Source: an uncultured delta proteobacterium (GTDB lineage Bacteria; Desulfobacterota; Desulfuromonadia; Desulfuromonadales; BM103). From it: 64,000 bases of DNA. Each line of letters begins with the position of its first letter. Within the stretch, counting starts at the first letter, position 1. The notes under the pieces are model-generated. The model searched no databases and had not been told where the DNA came from. It saw nothing but the letters and a program-made list of their open reading frames with translations. Below, one piece after another: positions 2,090 to 36,666 of the stretch. The stretch spans positions 96,001 to 160,000 of the forward strand of contig CAVQRZ010000025.1 in the NCBI GenBank assembly GCA_963715335.1, in the 5' to 3' direction. Both the position numbers and the translations under genes were made by a program.

Positions 2090-3635
<1,546 letters not shown>

Positions 3636-3652
3636 AGGCAGCGGGCGGATTT

Positions 3653-3716
3653 TAGGGGCTTGGGGCTGGTAAGGGATTTCGACCTTCCAGCCTCCAACAC
3701 CCATTCTCCAGCCCCC
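3653..3716. repeat. Inverted heptamer-arm element between guaB and guaA
   Basis: Left arm taggggc ttggggc tggt; right arm TCCAGCC TCCAACA CCCATTC TCCAGCC; same unit as 2047-2074. Confidence 0.6.
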
Positions 3717-3723
3717 GATTTAT

Positions 3724-5280
3724 ATGGATATCCATTCTGAGAAGATCCTGATCCTTGATTTCGGGTCACAATATACCCAGTTGATTGCCCGTCGGGTGCG
3801 AGAAGCGCACGTCTACTGCGAATTGCATCCTTATGACATGAGCCTGGAAGAGATCAGGGGTTTCAATGCCACGGGGATCATCCTTTCCGGTGGGCCGAAG
3901 TCGGTTTATGATGTTGACGCCCCGACGATTGAAGAGGAGCTGTTCGAGCTTGACGTCCCCGTGCTGGGGATCTGCTACGGCATGCAGCTGATGTGCCACC
4001 ATTTCGGCGGCAAGGTTGTGCCGGCCGGCAAACGTGAGTATGGGCACGCAGACCTGCTGGCCAAAGGCGTTCCCGGGCCGCTCTTTGACAACTTTTTCGT
4101 TGATGGTCACAGTCCGGTCTGGATGAGCCACGGCGATCATGTCGAGATCGTACCCAAGGGCTTTGTGGAAATTGCCGAGACCGATAACGCACCGGTCTGC
4201 GCTATCCAGAATGTGGCGCGCAACCTGTACGGCGTCCAGTTCCACCCCGAAGTCAACCATACCCCCCGTGGGGAACTCCTGATTGACACATTCGTGCGCA
4301 GGATCTGCGGTTGTACCGGAAAGTGGACCCCTGGCCAGATTATCGAAGATGCGGTTGCCCGCATCCGGGAACAGGTTGGAGCGGAAGAAGTCATTCTCGG
4401 CCTCTCAGGCGGGGTCGATTCATCGGTGGCTGCAGCGTTGATCCATCGCGCCATCGGTGACCAGCTGACCTGCGTCTTCGTCGATAACGGCCTGTTGCGC
4501 CTCGGCGAAGGAGACCAGGTGATGGCCACCTTCGCCCAGAGCCTTGGCGTCAAAGTGCTCCGGGTTGATGCCGAAGCGCGTTTCCTGGAGAAGCTGGCAG
4601 GTGAAACCGACCCGGAAAACAAACGCAAGATCATCGGCAACCTGTTTGTTGATATCTTCGAGGAGGAATCGAAGCGTCTGGCCAATGCCAGGTGGCTCGC
4701 GCAGGGAACCATTTACCCCGATGTCATCGAATCAGCCGGAGCCAAAACCGGCAAGGCCCACAATATCAAGAGTCACCATAACGTTGGTGGCCTGCCCGAT
4801 TACATGACCCTCAAGCTGCTGGAGCCGTTGCGCGAACTGTTCAAGGACGAGGTGAGGGCGATCGGCGAGGAACTCGGCCTGCCGCACCGCATGGTCTGGC
4901 GCCACCCTTTCCCCGGGCCCGGTCTCGGTGTCCGTATCCTCGGCGAAATCAAACAGGAGTACTGCGACATCCTGCGTCAGGCCGATGCCATCTACATCGA
5001 TGAACTCTACCAGAGCGGCCACTACGACAAGATCAGCCAGGCGTTCGCGGTTTTTCTGCCGGTCAAGAGTGTTGGTGTCATGGGCGACGGGCGGACTTAC
5101 GAGTACGTGATTGCCCTGCGTGCAGTGGAAACCAAAGACTTCATGACCGCTGGCTGGTATCCTATGCCCTACGCTGACCTCGCCCGTATCAGCAACCGGA
5201 TTATCAATGAAGTGCGTGGGGTCAACCGTGTGACCTACGATATCTCGAGCAAGCCGCCGGCTACGATAGAGTGGGAATAA
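3724..5280 (+). CDS. guaA: GMP synthase (glutamine-hydrolysing)
   Basis: [50 protein letters not shown]. Confidence 0.98.
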
Positions 5281-5443
5281 ATTTATAGTCTGCGGTGAGT
5301 GGCTTACTGCGGGAAAAAGACCTGTCAGACGAGCGGGGCCGGATATCGCAAAATTATCCTCCGACGTTGATTGAAGTAGAGCCGGGGATAGCCATCTTCA
5401 GCTCTTTTTACCATGCTGAAATTATGTGTTTTGGAGCGCAATT

Positions 5444-6220
5444 GTGAAGGACCATTTGCCGGAGAAGTGGCGGGCGATTCTACGCTACAATAACCTGGAC
5501 AGTTTTGATCGCCTGTGGTCTCTGGAGGCAGAGTGGTTTGAGCCACCCAACCAGCGTCGCGGGGGCTGGAGTGGTGTCTCCCGTTGCGAACTGGAACTGC
5601 CTGAGGGGGGCAAAAGGAGCGTTTTCCTCAAACGTCAGGAAAATCATATCACCCGAACTTTTCTGCATCCTTTTGGCCTTTCGACTTTTGTTCGAGAGAT
5701 GCAAAACATTTTGACCTTCAAAATGGCTGGAGTCCCGGCACTGGAGCCGGTTTATTTTGCCGTTCGGAAAACCGAGGGAGATTTGCGTGCGATCCTCTGC
5801 ACAGAGGCCCTTGAAGAATATAAACCTTTGGAAAGCTTGGCAGAACGTTGGGTGGAAGAAGGTTGGCCTGATAAAACAACGCGACTGCGCCTGATGCAGG
5901 CCGTTGCAACTGTTATGACCCAGATGCACGATCATAGGATCCAGCATAATTGCTTCTACCCAAAACACATCTTTGTCCGTTTCGACAAAGAAGGCGTTAG
6001 CGTACGTATCATTGATCTGGAAAAAGCCAAGGTGCGATTACTCCGTCGTTTCGCGACTTTTCGGGATCTTTATACCCTGAACAGGCATTCTCAATGCTGG
6101 CGTCGTACTGAGCGACTCCGCTTCTTCCTGCTTTACCTTGGCCGCAAAAGCCTTGACCATGAAGCCAAGGCCCTCTGGAGGGGTATTGCAAAGCGTACCA
6201 AGGCAAAAGGGCGGGTCTAG
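5444..6220 (+). CDS. InaA/Kdo-WaaP family lipopolysaccharide kinase-like protein
   Basis: WFEPPNQRRGGWSGV, FLKRQENH, HNCFYPKHIFV, IIDLEK kinase-like motifs; GTG 5444 follows GGAG. Confidence 0.8.
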   Translation: MKDHLPEKWRAILRYNNLDSFDRLWSLEAEWFEPPNQRRGGWSGVSRCELELPEGGKRSVFLKRQENHITRTFLHPFGLSTFVREMQNILTFKMAGVPALEPVYFAVRKTEGDLRAILCTEALEEYKPLESLAERWVEEGWPDKTTRLRLMQAVATVMTQMHDHRIQHNCFYPKHIFVRFDKEGVSVRIIDLEKAKVRLLRRFATFRDLYTLNRHSQCWRRTERLRFFLLYLGRKSLDHEAKALWRGIAKRTKAKGRV

Positions 6221-18028: not shown

Positions 18029-18826
18029 TTAACCCATGCCACGCTTTTTAAGCTCGTCCTGGACGAGCTTTTTTTGTGCCGGGTTGAGACGTTTCGAGAC
18101 GAGCAGGTTGCGCACATCAGGGCTGCGCATCTGGGGCAGAAAGAGTGTAAACCAGATTGAAGGTGTCCTGCGGTTTTTCAGAATGGCAAGTCTCAGGTTG
18201 GGGCGCAATCTCCACTTCGGGTGTCTGGCTATGCTCGATATCGTCTCCGCCGATGAATGCGCTCCGTTGATAAATTGCAGAATCGCCACCTCGCGCAGGC
18301 GCGGGCTGTCCAGGCAGATCTGCACAAGTCGCGCTTCTCCCCCCTTGAGGATTTCACCGACAACCGTAGCTGTTGCCCGACGCGCGATCGTCATCTTGTT
18401 GCCAAGTTCGGTGGTCGGCAGCCTCTGTAGAATGGCCCGCTCCGCGGCGAATTTCTGGTCCGGTGTGACACCGGGGATCATACAGAGATCGACAAGCTCA
18501 AAAAGATGCAGGTGTGACAGCAGGGCGAGTACGATCGAGCCCGGAGTGTTGGGGTTTTTGACCAGGGCGATTTTTAACCGGTGACTGCTCTTGGCGGCTT
18601 CGAGCTGGTAGATGACCTTGAGCAGATCTTCGTCAAGATCACGGCGTTTCAGCAGGGCGAGCAGGTGATCCTCGTTCAGATGGGGATTCTTTAGCGCCGT
18701 CCGGGCAATCTGCATGTCCGGGTCGAGCAGGACCTGGAATAACTCGTCGCCGGTTGCAGTAAGTGCCCTGTGCAGCCGTTTGCCGATTTCGGCCTCAATT
18801 CGTCTGGGTCGCGGTGTTTCAGCCAT
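18029..18826 (-). CDS. Hypothetical alpha-solenoid protein with LRV-like repeats
   Basis: Repeated helical units ARTALKNPHL, KIALVKNPNTP, RLAILKNRRTP; 30 nt downstream of tgt paralog on the same strand. Confidence 0.75.
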   Translation of the reverse strand: MAETPRPRRIEAEIGKRLHRALTATGDELFQVLLDPDMQIARTALKNPHLNEDHLLALLKRRDLDEDLLKVIYQLEAAKSSHRLKIALVKNPNTPGSIVLALLSHLHLFELVDLCMIPGVTPDQKFAAERAILQRLPTTELGNKMTIARRATATVVGEILKGGEARLVQICLDSPRLREVAILQFINGAHSSAETISSIARHPKWRLRPNLRLAILKNRRTPSIWFTLFLPQMRSPDVRNLLVSKRLNPAQKKLVQDELKKRGMG

Positions 18827-18856
18827 AAGTAATTATGCGGGCCGAGGAGCAGATCG

Positions 18857-19981
18857 TCAATGTCCGGGTTGACCGTCATCGCGTAAGTATTCGTCGAGGA
18901 ATGCGGCTTTGAAGCTGGTGAAGTCATTGCCTTCAATTGCAACGCGGGCCCCTGCGACCATATCGAGATAGAAGCGGACATTGTGAATTGCCGCGAGAGT
19001 CGCCGACAGGACTTCGTTGGCATTGAAGAGATGATGCAGATAGGCCCTGGTGAAGTTCGCACAGCAATAACAGGTGCATAACGGGTCAACCGGGAAAAAG
19101 TCGCGACGGTAACGCCGGTTGGTCAATCGGATTTTACCTCTCCGGGTAAAGAGGGTGGCACTGCGGGCATAACGGGTCGGAATGACACAGTCGAACATGT
19201 CCATGCCGCGCTCAATGCTTGCCATGATGTCCTCTGGCAGACCGACCCCCATCAGGTATCGTGGTTTGTCTTCCGGCAAGTAGGGCTCCGTGTGGTCGAC
19301 GACTTGCTTGAGCAGTTCCAGACCTTCACCGACACTGACTCCGCCAATTGCATAACCGGGGAAATCCATTGCCGTAAGTGCTCCGGCGCACTCGCGTCGC
19401 AAGTCGTCGTAAGTACTCCCCTGGACGATACCGAACAGTGCCTGGTCTTCTCGGTTATGAGCCTTTAGGCATTCTTCCGCCCAGCGCAGGGTCTTTTTAA
19501 TGGACTTGTTCGAATAATCATGTGACGCCGGGTAGGGGATGCATTCATCAAAAGCCATGATAATATCAGCCCCCAGGAGATTTTGTATCCGGGTTGCTTC
19601 TCGCGGGCCGATAAAGACCCGGTCGCCGTTGATCTCATGTTTGAAAAAGACCCCTGTGTCTGTGATCTCTTTCTTGGGCAGGGAAAAGACCTGGAAGCCC
19701 CCGCTGTCGGTCAGGATCGGCTTGGGCCAGTGCATGAACCGGTGCAGACCACCCGCCTTTTCCACCAAGCCCTCGCCGGGTCTCAAGTGCAGGTGGTAGG
19801 TGTTGGAGAGTATGATCTGGGCCCCTGCATCGTCAACCTGTGCCGGGGTCATTGCCTTGAGGGCACCATGAGTCCCGACCGGCATGAAAATCGGTGTCTC
19901 GATAACCCCGTGCGGGGTCGTGACACGACCACGTCGGGCACGGGTTTTCTGGTCTTTGGCGAGCAATTCAAATCGTAACAT
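18857..19981 (-). CDS. tgt: tRNA-guanine(34) transglycosylase, second paralog
   Basis: [48 protein letters not shown], Zn site CTCYCC..H. Confidence 0.95.
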   Translation of the reverse strand: MLRFELLAKDQKTRARRGRVTTPHGVIETPIFMPVGTHGALKAMTPAQVDDAGAQIILSNTYHLHLRPGEGLVEKAGGLHRFMHWPKPILTDSGGFQVFSLPKKEITDTGVFFKHEINGDRVFIGPREATRIQNLLGADIIMAFDECIPYPASHDYSNKSIKKTLRWAEECLKAHNREDQALFGIVQGSTYDDLRRECAGALTAMDFPGYAIGGVSVGEGLELLKQVVDHTEPYLPEDKPRYLMGVGLPEDIMASIERGMDMFDCVIPTRYARSATLFTRRGKIRLTNRRYRRDFFPVDPLCTCYCCANFTRAYLHHLFNANEVLSATLAAIHNVRFYLDMVAGARVAIEGNDFTSFKAAFLDEYLRDDGQPGH

Positions 19982-20085
19982 AATTTCGTAGGCTTTAGCT
20001 GTCGCAGACGTTGCAGATATGGTGTATACCTGTTGATAATATGGCGGACTCTATCAGAATTGATGAAGGACTACAACAACCTGAA

Positions 20086-21045
20086 ATGATCGCTGAAAAG
20101 AATTTACTCATACCGGATTGGCCCGCCGGATTGCAGGAAGTCGATATAGTCAAGGCCCGCTTTGCCCTGGATTTTCTCTCTCCTTGCACCGCTCAGCCCG
20201 CTGATTTTATAATGCTGTTCCGCACTCTGCGTAATGTCGGCAGGCAGATGCTTGACTCGACCGATCCCCTCGCAGTTAGGCAATGGGAAGACCTTTTCCA
20301 ACCTGCCCTGAGTGACGACCCAGTCGCCCGGCGCAAATTCCAGAAACCGGCACCGGCATTGGTGATGACCATGCCGGTCGTGCAGAAAACCTTTATCGAC
20401 ACCGGCGACCGGCTAGAATGTGAGGTGCTGTTTATCGGCGCCGGCGTACCGCTCATCCCCGTATTTTTGGGAAGCCTGATTCAACTGGGCAGTCTTGGGA
20501 TGGTTTTCGATCAGGGTCATTTTGAAGTCACGGCAGTTTACAGCACGCAGAATGGGCAGCCTGAATCTCCCGCCTGGCGGCAGGGTGATCCACTGGATTC
20601 TTTGACATGTACGGTCCAACCCCTGAGCTGGCTGGTCAATCAGGAACAGGTTCCCGATAGACTGACGATATCGTATGAGACCCCGGTTCGACTGATGGCC
20701 GCCGGCAGACCACTGAGGAAGCCGCACTTCAGGCAGGTGTTCCCGTTTATGCTGCGACGCGTGACCTCCATGCTGTTCGCTCACACGGGGATTGAAATTC
20801 TTGATGAACCATCCAGTTTGCTTGGAAGCGCCAGCAGGCTAGAAGAGTCGGCAACACGCCTGACCTGGACCGATTGGAGAGAGATTGCCGGTCAACAGGG
20901 ATTGGTAGTCGGCGGCTTCACGGGCGAAATGCTTCTCTCCGGCGAGGCCATAGAACAGATATACTGGGTTCTGGCGGTAGCATCGCTGTTCGGCATCGGC
21001 AAGAGTGCGACCTATGGCGCCGGTCGATTCAGACTTTGCCACTGA
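20086..21045 (+). CDS. Orphan Cas6-like RAMP protein (CRISPR-associated endoribonuclease fold), divergent
   Basis: C-terminal G-rich loop GIGKSATYGAG followed by a short beta strand, plus YETPVRL, F..MLRRV, WTDW, GGFTG motifs; start could be 20041. Confidence 0.75.
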   Translation: MIAEKNLLIPDWPAGLQEVDIVKARFALDFLSPCTAQPADFIMLFRTLRNVGRQMLDSTDPLAVRQWEDLFQPALSDDPVARRKFQKPAPALVMTMPVVQKTFIDTGDRLECEVLFIGAGVPLIPVFLGSLIQLGSLGMVFDQGHFEVTAVYSTQNGQPESPAWRQGDPLDSLTCTVQPLSWLVNQEQVPDRLTISYETPVRLMAAGRPLRKPHFRQVFPFMLRRVTSMLFAHTGIEILDEPSSLLGSASRLEESATRLTWTDWREIAGQQGLVVGGFTGEMLLSGEAIEQIYWVLAVASLFGIGKSATYGAGRFRLCH

Positions 21046-21109
21046 TTTGTTGCTGGGCTTCAAATGCCTGTTATAATTAAAAAAACGAGAGCTTTCCGGA
21101 GGTGATGTT

Positions 21110-21424
21110 ATGACGGATGCATGGGAAGAGCGGAAAAAGGCCTTGGAGAATAAATACTTTCATGACCTGGAAAAAGAACTGATCGAGAAGATCCGGCAGG
21201 AGACCCAGGAAAAGCTGATTCGTAAATATTGTCTTGGTCGTTGCCCGAAATGCGGCGACAAGATCGAGCCGATCAATTACAGGGGGGTTCCAATGGATAA
21301 ATGTGTCAACTGCGGAGGGGTCTGGATGGGGCCGAATGACTTCAGGATCTTTTCGGAGAAGGACCATCGTACCTGGTTTGAGCGGTGGTTCAAGGAAGAG
21401 GCGATCGACAAGGACGGCTCATGA
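21110..21424 (+). CDS. TFIIB-type zinc-ribbon protein with N-terminal charged helix
   Basis: CPKC..DKCVNCGGVW; GGAGGT RBS; TATAAT just upstream. Confidence 0.85.
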   Translation: MTDAWEERKKALENKYFHDLEKELIEKIRQETQEKLIRKYCLGRCPKCGDKIEPINYRGVPMDKCVNCGGVWMGPNDFRIFSEKDHRTWFERWFKEEAIDKDGS

Positions 21425-21440
21425 TACCGTGACCGCCCCT

Positions 21441-21992
21441 TTATCCTTCTCCAAAAACCTGGGCGCTGAAAACATAGATGTCAGCATCATCGGCTTTCCA
21501 GGCATCCGTCGGCAATCCCGCCTTGATACAGGTCTGTTTCAGAAAGGCTAGACGATCCCAGTTGTGTTCCAGGGCAACCTGGGGCAGAAGGACGCCCCGA
21601 TAGAAACCCTTTTCGATGTAAATGCCGTGTTTGCCGACTTCTATCTCCTCGATATCTTCAATCTTCTGTAGCGGCGTGAGCACTGAAATCTCGAGGGTGA
21701 AGTTGCTCAGATCGTTTTCCTTGAGAGGGTAAAAACGGGGATCTTTCGCCGCGGAGGCCTGGGCCATCTGGGCGACTTCCTTGAACAGCGGCAGTTCGGA
21801 CTGGAAATTACCAATGCAGCCGCGCAATTGTCCGTTCTGCTTGATCGTCACAAAGCAGCCGTTGCGCTGGTTCAGGGCTTTTTCTTCTCGTGGTTCAATG
21901 TACTCCTGGCCAGTTAGCACGCCTTGAATGATCGCCTGGCGGGCAATGGCTAGGAGGGCTTGCTGCTCGTGAGCGTTCAACTCTCGGTCCAC
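21441..21992 (-). CDS. amrA: AmmeMemoRadiSam system protein A (AMMECR1 domain)
   Basis: GCFVT, LRGCIG, DPRF, EISVLTP, GKHGI, GVLLPQVA, KAGL; GTG start after GGAGG. Confidence 0.92.
   Translation of the reverse strand: MDRELNAHEQQALLAIARQAIIQGVLTGQEYIEPREEKALNQRNGCFVTIKQNGQLRGCIGNFQSELPLFKEVAQMAQASAAKDPRFYPLKENDLSNFTLEISVLTPLQKIEDIEEIEVGKHGIYIEKGFYRGVLLPQVALEHNWDRLAFLKQTCIKAGLPTDAWKADDADIYVFSAQVFGEG

Positions 21993-35402: not shown

Positions 35403-36666
<1,264 letters not shown>

Follow-up and report, generated by a model that had tools for sequence, protein, structure and literature searches.

Cas6 enzymes of solved structure process precursor CRISPR RNA (pre-crRNA). The AF1859-type Cas6 proteins of type III systems, which we take to be those grouped in COG5551, carry the PF10040 and PF27225 domains and are encoded beside cas10/Csm1, NE0113, Card1 or RAMP genes. 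They have an isoelectric point (pI) of 9.2 and a patchy distribution: a cas6 profile finds a match in 100 of 291 genomes of the phylum outside the class Desulfuromonadia. Cas genes in general are patchy and mobile. The gene described here, cas6L, is instead near-universal in Desulfuromonadia, the class to which Geobacter belongs, often in genomes without cas1. It lies in a 64,000-nucleotide stretch (the window) of contig CAVQRZ010000025.1 from an uncultured delta proteobacterium of the order Desulfuromonadales (GenBank assembly GCA_963715335.1). An earlier reading of the window from its letters alone (the sequence-only reading) proposed a domesticated, CRISPR-independent Cas6, and this proposal is supported: the gene is class-wide, vertically inherited, under purifying selection, and transcribed in a relative. 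With about 93% of a whole class carrying it, this lone Cas6 clearly exemplifies the recruitment of a CRISPR component to routine work in the cell.

Exapted or solo Cas proteins have been described before: solo-Cas4, and also an array-less type I-E derivative in Streptomyces and haloarchaeal derivatives (both in PMC8730458, accessible sections). These likewise are without arrays or adaptation modules but, unlike cas6L, they consist of different proteins or of modules of several genes, and their predicted role is in defence. The accessible sections of two reviews of CRISPR exaptation (PMC8730458 and PMC3150331) present array-less modules and no lone, class-wide Cas6, and no account of a single Cas6 established throughout a class as a core gene turned up in a search of the open-access literature. 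Annotation pipelines name the cas6L proteins "CRISPR precrRNA processing Cas6", a label that can mislead surveys of defence systems.

A Cas6 protein outside CRISPR

The cas6L frame encodes 319 residues from its ATG, or 344 from an upstream TTG. Every motif listed in the sequence-only reading is present: TPxRL (T199-P200-x-R202-L203), RR (R224-R225), WxDW (W261-x-D263-W264), GGFxG (G276-G277-x-x-G280), and the G-loop GIGKSATYGAG (G303 to G313). The last fits GhGxxxxxGhG with K or R, the Cas6 motif as defined in the accessible part of PMC3902920. The product matches PF10040 (CRISPR_Cas6) at 43.5 bits (cut-off, 25; E 5e-11) and the PADLOC Cas6 model at E 1e-41; the NCBIfam Cas6 models gave no match. 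For an AlphaFold (AF2) model made from a 25-sequence alignment (predicted local distance difference test, pLDDT, 88), the best Foldseek matches are all Cas6, including 6dd5 (E 8e-14) and 4c9d (E 2e-11), and a VIA structure comparison with 48,161 chains aligned 229 residues to 6fjw (Z 17.7; root-mean-square deviation 3.3). The best structural matches, over residues 17-319, comprise TtCas6A/B (4c8y, 4c9d), Streptococcus thermophilus Cas6 (6fjw), the Cas6 domain of Cas6-RT-Cas1 (6dd5, 7kft), and an archaeal Cas6 (3zfv); identity to these solved enzymes is 13-18%, and a one-to-one assignment of their catalytic residues was not possible. The fold, the G-loop and the profile score all place the product in the Cas6 family, and the proposed RAMP/ferredoxin fold is borne out. 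By context it is not a CRISPR-associated Cas6, and by motif it is not an AF1859-type enzyme.

The window's genome (G000: 3.3 Mb in 43 contigs, 100% complete, 6.9% contamination) gave no match in searches for Cas1, Cas2, Cas10 and RAMP proteins, for which positive controls matched, and a scan of the whole genome for arrays (12-mer, three copies) found none. The absence of arrays is strong but not absolute, because arrays can drop out at contig ends. The earlier observation that cas6L has no CRISPR array or other cas gene around it thus extends from the window to the genome for cas1, cas2, cas10, RAMP genes and arrays, and leaves the gene with neither cas-gene nor cognate-array context. Loci of cas6L orthologs (up to L102) are also free of arrays. 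A weak Cas3_HD match in the genome proved to be an unrelated 377-aa HD protein, read as YhaM-like. Solo CRISPR-like repeats were considered as cas6L targets and rejected: seven repeats from type III-type loci had chance matches only in G000, none better than E 0.058.

These data bear on the idea that cas6L is a standing, trans-acting crRNA maturase, kept for arrays that are occasionally acquired. Its Cas6 ancestry is genuine (HHalign against type III Cas6: probability 100, E 2.5e-48, full length), and some active Cas6 proteins are without the histidine (PMC3902920, accessible part). But no pre-crRNA substrate, array or cas gene was found in G000, the type III repeats have no good counterpart there, cas1 is present in only 13 of 61 related genomes, and cas6L has lost the motifs best conserved in CRISPR-linked members. 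Moreover, class members with a type III locus (L096, L097, L197) have their own canonical cas6 beside cas10. A maturase role is therefore very improbable. Two of those three loci also encode a Card1-type CARF nuclease.

Distribution, inheritance and selection

Among the same 61 relatives, the cas6L protein has a match in 58. (A scan of genome contigs with the single protein as query found two loci only.) Across the class, a cas6L profile matched in 234 of 251 genomes, nearly always once; these matches were not each checked individually, and a second profile, from the other of the class's two orders, confirmed both weak matches and absences in 80 chosen genomes. The sole match in G202 is a CRISPR cas6, which leaves a cas6L ortholog in at most 233 of 251. 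Three of the 18 genomes without one (G027, G177, G196) are probably assembly gaps, because the neighbouring gene tgt2 is also missing there; these and G207 (340 contigs) were set aside. The remaining 14 well-supported losses fall in about four lineages: ten genomes of family f5; G104 with G149; G189; and G202.

Outside the class, the best 25 of the 100 matches are all of the canonical type, many of them beside cas10/Csm1, NE0113 or RAMP genes. Trees resolve three cas6 groups, namely Desulfuromonadales, the other order and the CRISPR-linked proteins, with Shimodaira-Hasegawa (SH) support of 100, 98 and 99 in FastTree (178 rows) and support of 100, 99 and 99 in a quick IQ-TREE LG+G4 analysis of 53 of those rows. 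As these trees have no outgroup rooting, we infer the direction, from CRISPR to housekeeping, on the ground that the CRISPR type is widespread whereas cas6L is narrowly distributed.

The ratio of nonsynonymous to synonymous substitutions (dN/dS) in cas6L is 0.115-0.287 in 17 of 17 pairs. Such purifying selection largely refutes the notion that cas6L is a decaying, functionless remnant hitch-hiking in a conserved neighbourhood. The gene does evolve faster than its neighbours, is weakly expressed, has no transposon-insertion phenotype (see below), and gives split matches in G004, G015, G026 and G050 (L016, L020, L028 and G050:C18). Nevertheless, frames are full length across about 25% identity and the gene has been kept after moving to unrelated sites; the splits in G015 and G050 are probably assembly errors, because tgt2 is split there too. 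Decay is hardly credible as an explanation.

Transcription was followed in raw RNA reads (four runs from two studies) mapped to a relative's locus, L083. Sense depth over cas6L was 81-123 in run X24, with antisense about 1, against 130-418 for tgt2 and about 3000-6000 for the upstream succinate dehydrogenase operon, sdhCAB; in run X21 the values were 13-20 (sense), 0-4 (antisense) and 1200-2300 (sdhCAB). Expression of cas6L in this relative is thus about 1-2% of that of sdhCAB. The sharp drop in coverage at the sdhB terminator indicates that cas6L is transcribed either as minor read-through or from a separate promoter. Peaks of read beginnings and ends near this terminator were not taken as evidence of processing, since they could be library artefacts at hairpins.

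Two further features of the upstream sequence were noted. In five sdhB-cas6L spacers (L085, L086, L090, L095, L105), inspection by eye picked out extended -10-like sequences just before the terminator hairpin; transcription of cas6L could thus begin within the hairpin and so escape termination. In the window's own family, a TACAA(T/C) hexamer lies 8 nt before the cas6L ATG and a Shine-Dalgarno sequence is absent (20072-20088 in the window), an arrangement compatible with a leaderless mRNA.

The matching gene in the model organism Geobacter sulfurreducens, GSU1179, has the same position and length (305 aa), between frdB and ftsH-1, and is annotated "hypothetical". Its presence pattern appears in the accessible part of PMC2669807 as GsGmGu----Da. 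A search of the open-access literature found no main-text mention of GSU1179 or Gmet_2394.

Ancestry and a probably remodelled active site

The full-length homology between cas6L and AF1859-type type III Cas6 extends to domain labels, since the N-terminal domain of cas6L homologs is labelled AF_1859_N (PF27225), and to architecture: both have two RRMs, the G-loop, and the TPxR, RR and WxDW motifs. Besides being CRISPR-free and mostly single-copy, cas6L differs in several conserved elements, as determined from 76 CRISPR-type, 74 Desulfuromonadales and 28 other-order sequences. CRISPR-type proteins have four cysteines (92-99%), R-x-S-x-R-Q (92-98%), and a histidine before the G-loop (93%). The N-terminal cysteine cluster and pre-G-loop histidine, which the sequence-only reading gave as frequent in this subfamily and noted to be missing here, are thus real features of the closest CRISPR relatives. 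Desulfuromonadales sequences are without the Cys4 cluster, RYSxRQ and the histidine, whereas the other order partly keeps the cysteines (54-82%). Together with YKGS..RG.FG, all four elements are absent from the window protein and its order. Also gone is the PHPF histidine, which CRISPR types have at a frequency of 67%; no histidine is conserved in helix alpha1 or the alpha1-beta2 loop, but Q86 and K87 are.

The cas6L proteins of both orders have new near-invariant residues, D78, P79, Q86, K/R87 and P88, which make up a DP..RR.QKP motif; conservation in Desulfuromonadales and the other order, respectively, is 95 and 92% for D78, 94 and 100% for Q86, and 95 and 100% for P88. The G-loop lysine K306 (91 and 100%; range 91-100% over all three groups) and arginines R202, R224 and R225 (the latter two 100% in cas6L) are kept. 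In TtCas6A/B, helix 1 and the G-loop form the active site together with the alpha1-beta2 loop (PMC3902920, accessible part); by analogy, the new motif would lie in the alpha1-beta2 segment, a usual place for the active site of a Cas6. The same source describes RNA contacts by the Cas6 G-loop. To judge from the alignment, the cas6L active site looks re-specialised, not merely eroded, because new loop residues are conserved and Cas6 proteins without histidine can be active.

Gene order: sdhCAB, tgt2 and ftsH

The gene upstream of cas6L in 58 Desulfuromonadales loci, a sample rich in the window's own family, is divergent tgt2 (44), sdhB (11), or another gene or contig edge (3). The corresponding numbers for 35 loci from the other order are tgt2, 0; sdhB, 20; other genes, 14; and contig edge, 1. 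The layout tgt2<- ->sdhC-sdhA-sdhB-cas6L-(Zn)-ftsH, where Zn denotes a zinc-ribbon gene, is found in both orders and is most simply taken as ancestral. The head-to-head adjacency of tgt2 and cas6L is derived from it, through loss or moving away of the intervening sdhCAB; in the window's genome, sdhCAB is on contig C5. A tgt2+cas6L tree with 40 labelled rows requires at least six changes between the "sdh between" and "adjacent" states.

The sequence-only reading had suggested that cas6L works with Tgt2, as one RNA processing and modification module in which cas6L would present or trim a non-canonical Tgt2 substrate. Both genes are nearly class-specific and, from about 4 kb apart in the ancestral order, they have repeatedly become adjacent. 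The two are adjacent in 44 of 58 Desulfuromonadales loci and in 0 of 35 from the other order, and deletion of the intervening operon yields adjacency without any functional link. In several lineages tgt2 has stayed beside sdhCAB while cas6L is elsewhere. tgt2 is far more constrained (dN/dS 0.019-0.110). None of the 14 genomes with a well-supported cas6L loss is without tgt2, and both Pelobacter species also retain it, so Tgt2 does not need cas6L. (A predicted Tgt2-cas6L complex, with a score of 0.00 and a mark of 0.32, is uninformative either way.) The suggestion thus fared poorly, and we regard such a module as improbable.

The other conspicuous neighbour is ftsH, directly downstream of cas6L in 17 of the 35 other-order loci, including loci detached from sdh and tgt2. 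This arrangement raises the possibility of a protein adaptor or scaffold, a Cas6 fold without an RNA role that serves, for example, in delivery of FtsH substrates or in putting together a respiratory complex. Such a conversion would fit the lost basic charge and the missing RYSxRQ hairpin, as well as hydrophobic positions that have newly become invariant in Desulfuromonadales, P220-F221 and W264. However, the G-loop lysine and three arginines are still 91-100% conserved in that order, and cas6L is not beside ftsH in the window or in the other 18 of 35 loci. Where cas6L is deleted, in G040 and G202, ftsH remains and tgt2 abuts it. A screen of 7999 longer candidates showed no fused form of cas6L, a weak argument. 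On balance an adaptor is a rather unlikely alternative, if the least unlikely of those considered.

Co-loss of cas6L with sdhCAB was examined and rejected: family f5 has cas6L in 0 of 10 genomes yet sdhB in 9 of 10, and family f2 has cas6L in 3 of 3 and this sdhB type in 0 of 3. Two local rearrangements were also noted. In genus g73 (L099, L102, L191), the ancestral place beside tgt2 is taken by sdhA/sdhB genes of a divergent type, as though the operon had been replaced in situ. Some members of family f29 (L092, L100, L101) have cas6L relocated to a site directly downstream of an fdhD-mobA fusion gene.

A model for cas6L function

The reading that we favour starts from the observed fold, ancestry, distribution, synteny, selection, and low-level sense transcription in one relative. 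An AF1859-type type III Cas6 would have become fixed in the chromosome of the class ancestor, between the sdhCAB terminator and ftsH, and then been inherited vertically without CRISPR. As its sequence conservation shows, the protein has kept the G-loop lysine and R202/R224/R225, lost the basic hairpin motif and pre-G-loop histidine, and fixed D78-P79...Q86-K87-P88. It would act post-transcriptionally as a non-essential factor, present in low abundance, that binds structured host RNA and may also cut it. This role may matter mainly in cells that respire by acetate oxidation, and the gene would have been lost in lineages already without the SfrA protein. We give an even chance to the reading in which cas6L, its active-site loop rebuilt, is a low-abundance RNA-binding or -cutting factor whose host RNA matters in respiring cells. 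The narrower proposal, a host endoribonuclease or RNA-binding regulator that was domesticated once, in the class ancestor, with its active-site loop rebuilt as DP..RR.QKP, and that recognises a specific hairpin in an mRNA or small RNA of respiration or central metabolism, is possible but distinctly more doubtful.

The respiratory connection comes from a comparison of SfrA and CbcL across 60 hand-picked genomes, with the doubtful losses G177, G196 and G207 (both markers present) excluded. An SfrA ortholog, defined as full length at E<=1e-190 (a threshold chosen after scores were seen), is missing in 14 of 14 well-supported cas6L losses, and CbcL in 13 of 14. This pattern, suggestive only, is that cas6L loss is nested, though not strictly, in lineages already without SfrA-type respiration.

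Several observations weigh against the favoured reading. SfrA is also missing in 11 of 43 cas6L bearers and CbcL in 10 of 43; and the respiratory link is no more than suggestive because there are about four loss events among non-independent kin. cas6L persists in family f2 without this sdhB type, so sdhCAB is not its sole target. The median pI falls from 9.19 in the CRISPR type to 7.63 and 6.12 in the two orders, which argues against strong RNA binding, and the window protein has F45 at the alpha1 position where 75% of its order keep an arginine. Transposon-insertion sequencing (Tn-seq) of G. sulfurreducens revealed no fitness cost for GSU1179 (12 sites; log2 -0.29 with fumarate and -0.13 on an electrode; PMC5585712, Table S2). 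Finally, no conserved RNA element was found beside cas6L, except a generic terminator in sdhB-linked loci.

Structured RNA in the tgt2/cas6L intergenic region was considered as a target and rejected: an Rfam scan of the 64-kb window gave no match, and the region has no stable fold (z +1.58; 193 of 200 shuffles equally good).

Should cas6L act on RNA, the metabolism of metal-reducing, current-producing bacteria would have a further, post-transcriptional level. If the regulatory reading is true, metal-reducing bacteria have made a Cas protein into a metabolic regulator that is passed on vertically, and a Cas6 has acquired a new RNA specificity outside CRISPR. Both GSU1179 and the neighbouring tgt-1 are non-essential by Tn-seq (PMC5585712, the part accessible), and the dispensability of GSU1179 in a tractable model makes deletion and crosslinking-immunoprecipitation (CLIP) experiments straightforward.

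Neighbouring genes in the window

Table 1. cas6L and the features flanking it in the window.
Feature	Coordinates	Strand	Remarks
Helical-repeat-like protein, downstream of tgt2	18029..18826	-	PF01816 (LRV) E 0.054, below threshold
tgt2, second tRNA-guanine transglycosylase	18857..19981	-	Nearly class-specific paralog; TIGR00430 504 bits (cut-off 307)
tgt2/cas6L divergent intergenic region	19982..20085	.	104 nt; junction remaining once sdhCAB moved
cas6L (Cas6-like gene)	20086..21045	+	319 aa; two RRM/ferredoxin domains, C-terminal G-loop; class-wide, CRISPR-independent
TFIIB-type Zn-ribbon protein	21110..21424	+	PF13453 E 6.5e-11; normally the downstream gene in Desulfuromonadales
amrA (AmmeMemoRadiSam protein A)	21441..21992	-	TIGR04335 192 bits; convergent, incidental neighbour

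The neighbourhood drawn in the sequence-only reading is largely as described (Table 1). tgt2 is indeed head-to-head with cas6L and is 49% identical to the canonical tgt, which lies at about 35530-36612 (window segment 34369-39641) between queA-like and yajC/secD/secF-like genes, names that are our reading of the translations. tgt2 is outside this queA-tgt-yajC-secDF operon, and a YARSA segment replaces NARNG in its product. In other respects the product is a bacterial Tgt, above the TIGR00430 cut-off with the conserved aspartate, zinc-site and pocket columns intact: D92, D145, D264 and C302/C304/C307/H333 are invariant among six aligned Tgts. The roles of these columns are presumably those of their counterparts in Zymomonas Tgt. 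A tgt2 match at E<=1e-150 was obtained in 247 of the 251 class genomes, among them all 14 with well-supported cas6L loss, and the protein is highly conserved (66-95% identity). Elsewhere in the phylum, one of 291 genomes has a copy at >=66% identity (G357, L138), situated among glycosyltransferase-like genes. A literature search on a second tgt in this group returned no report among the matches listed. A promoter-like sequence for tgt2, TTGTAG-17-TAGAGT (20076-20048, minus strand), was picked out by eye and recurs in the family's upstream regions; a promoter scan tool made no call for this candidate.

The gene beyond tgt2 is also real, although its LRV label has only the sub-threshold PF01816 match behind it. 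This helical-repeat-like protein travels with tgt2 in Desulfuromonadales, in most order-level loci, and shares 60% identity with a homolog in a different family.

On the other side of cas6L, the Zn-ribbon gene and amrA are both confirmed. The former is downstream of cas6L in 52 of 58 Desulfuromonadales loci, and probably has its own promoter (candidate TTGCTG-16-TATAAT at 21050-21077, read by eye). Obligate pairing with cas6L was rejected, since the Zn-ribbon gene is present in only 108 of 251 class genomes versus 233 for cas6L; it is absent in family f5. The N-terminal 35 residues of its product weakly match IATP (E 0.041) and may resemble the inhibitor helices of the IF1/zeta ATP-synthase inhibitors. 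amrA is next to cas6L only in loci of the window's own family, and in none of 20 order-level loci (L033-L052).

A conserved leader peptide upstream of sdhC

A short, start-codon-led open reading frame (ORF) with W-R-[G/A/P]-P-P near its start is present in 29 of 39 sdhC leaders (L038-L190) and in 0 of 7800 shuffles. It sits 92-165 nt before sdhC/frdC; in the window's genome it is outside the window, at about 35534 on the minus strand of contig C5, where it is the sole such ORF led by a ribosome-binding site. Because the variation includes third codon positions, it is the peptide that is conserved. RAPP and RGPP are known arrest motifs (PMC12992588; its main text, in the part accessible, mentions neither succinate, fumarate nor Geobacter), and by its sequence the ORF looks like a ribosome-arrest peptide controlling succinate dehydrogenase/fumarate reductase. 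A literature search found no published sdhC leader peptide. The leaders also contain the HgtR operator sequence (PMC2817479, accessible part). The peptide is encoded in 0 of 3 leaders from family f5 and in 29 of 36 from cas6L bearers. An obligate link with cas6L was rejected: G104 and G149 retain the peptide without cas6L, and the leader peptide is therefore independent of it.

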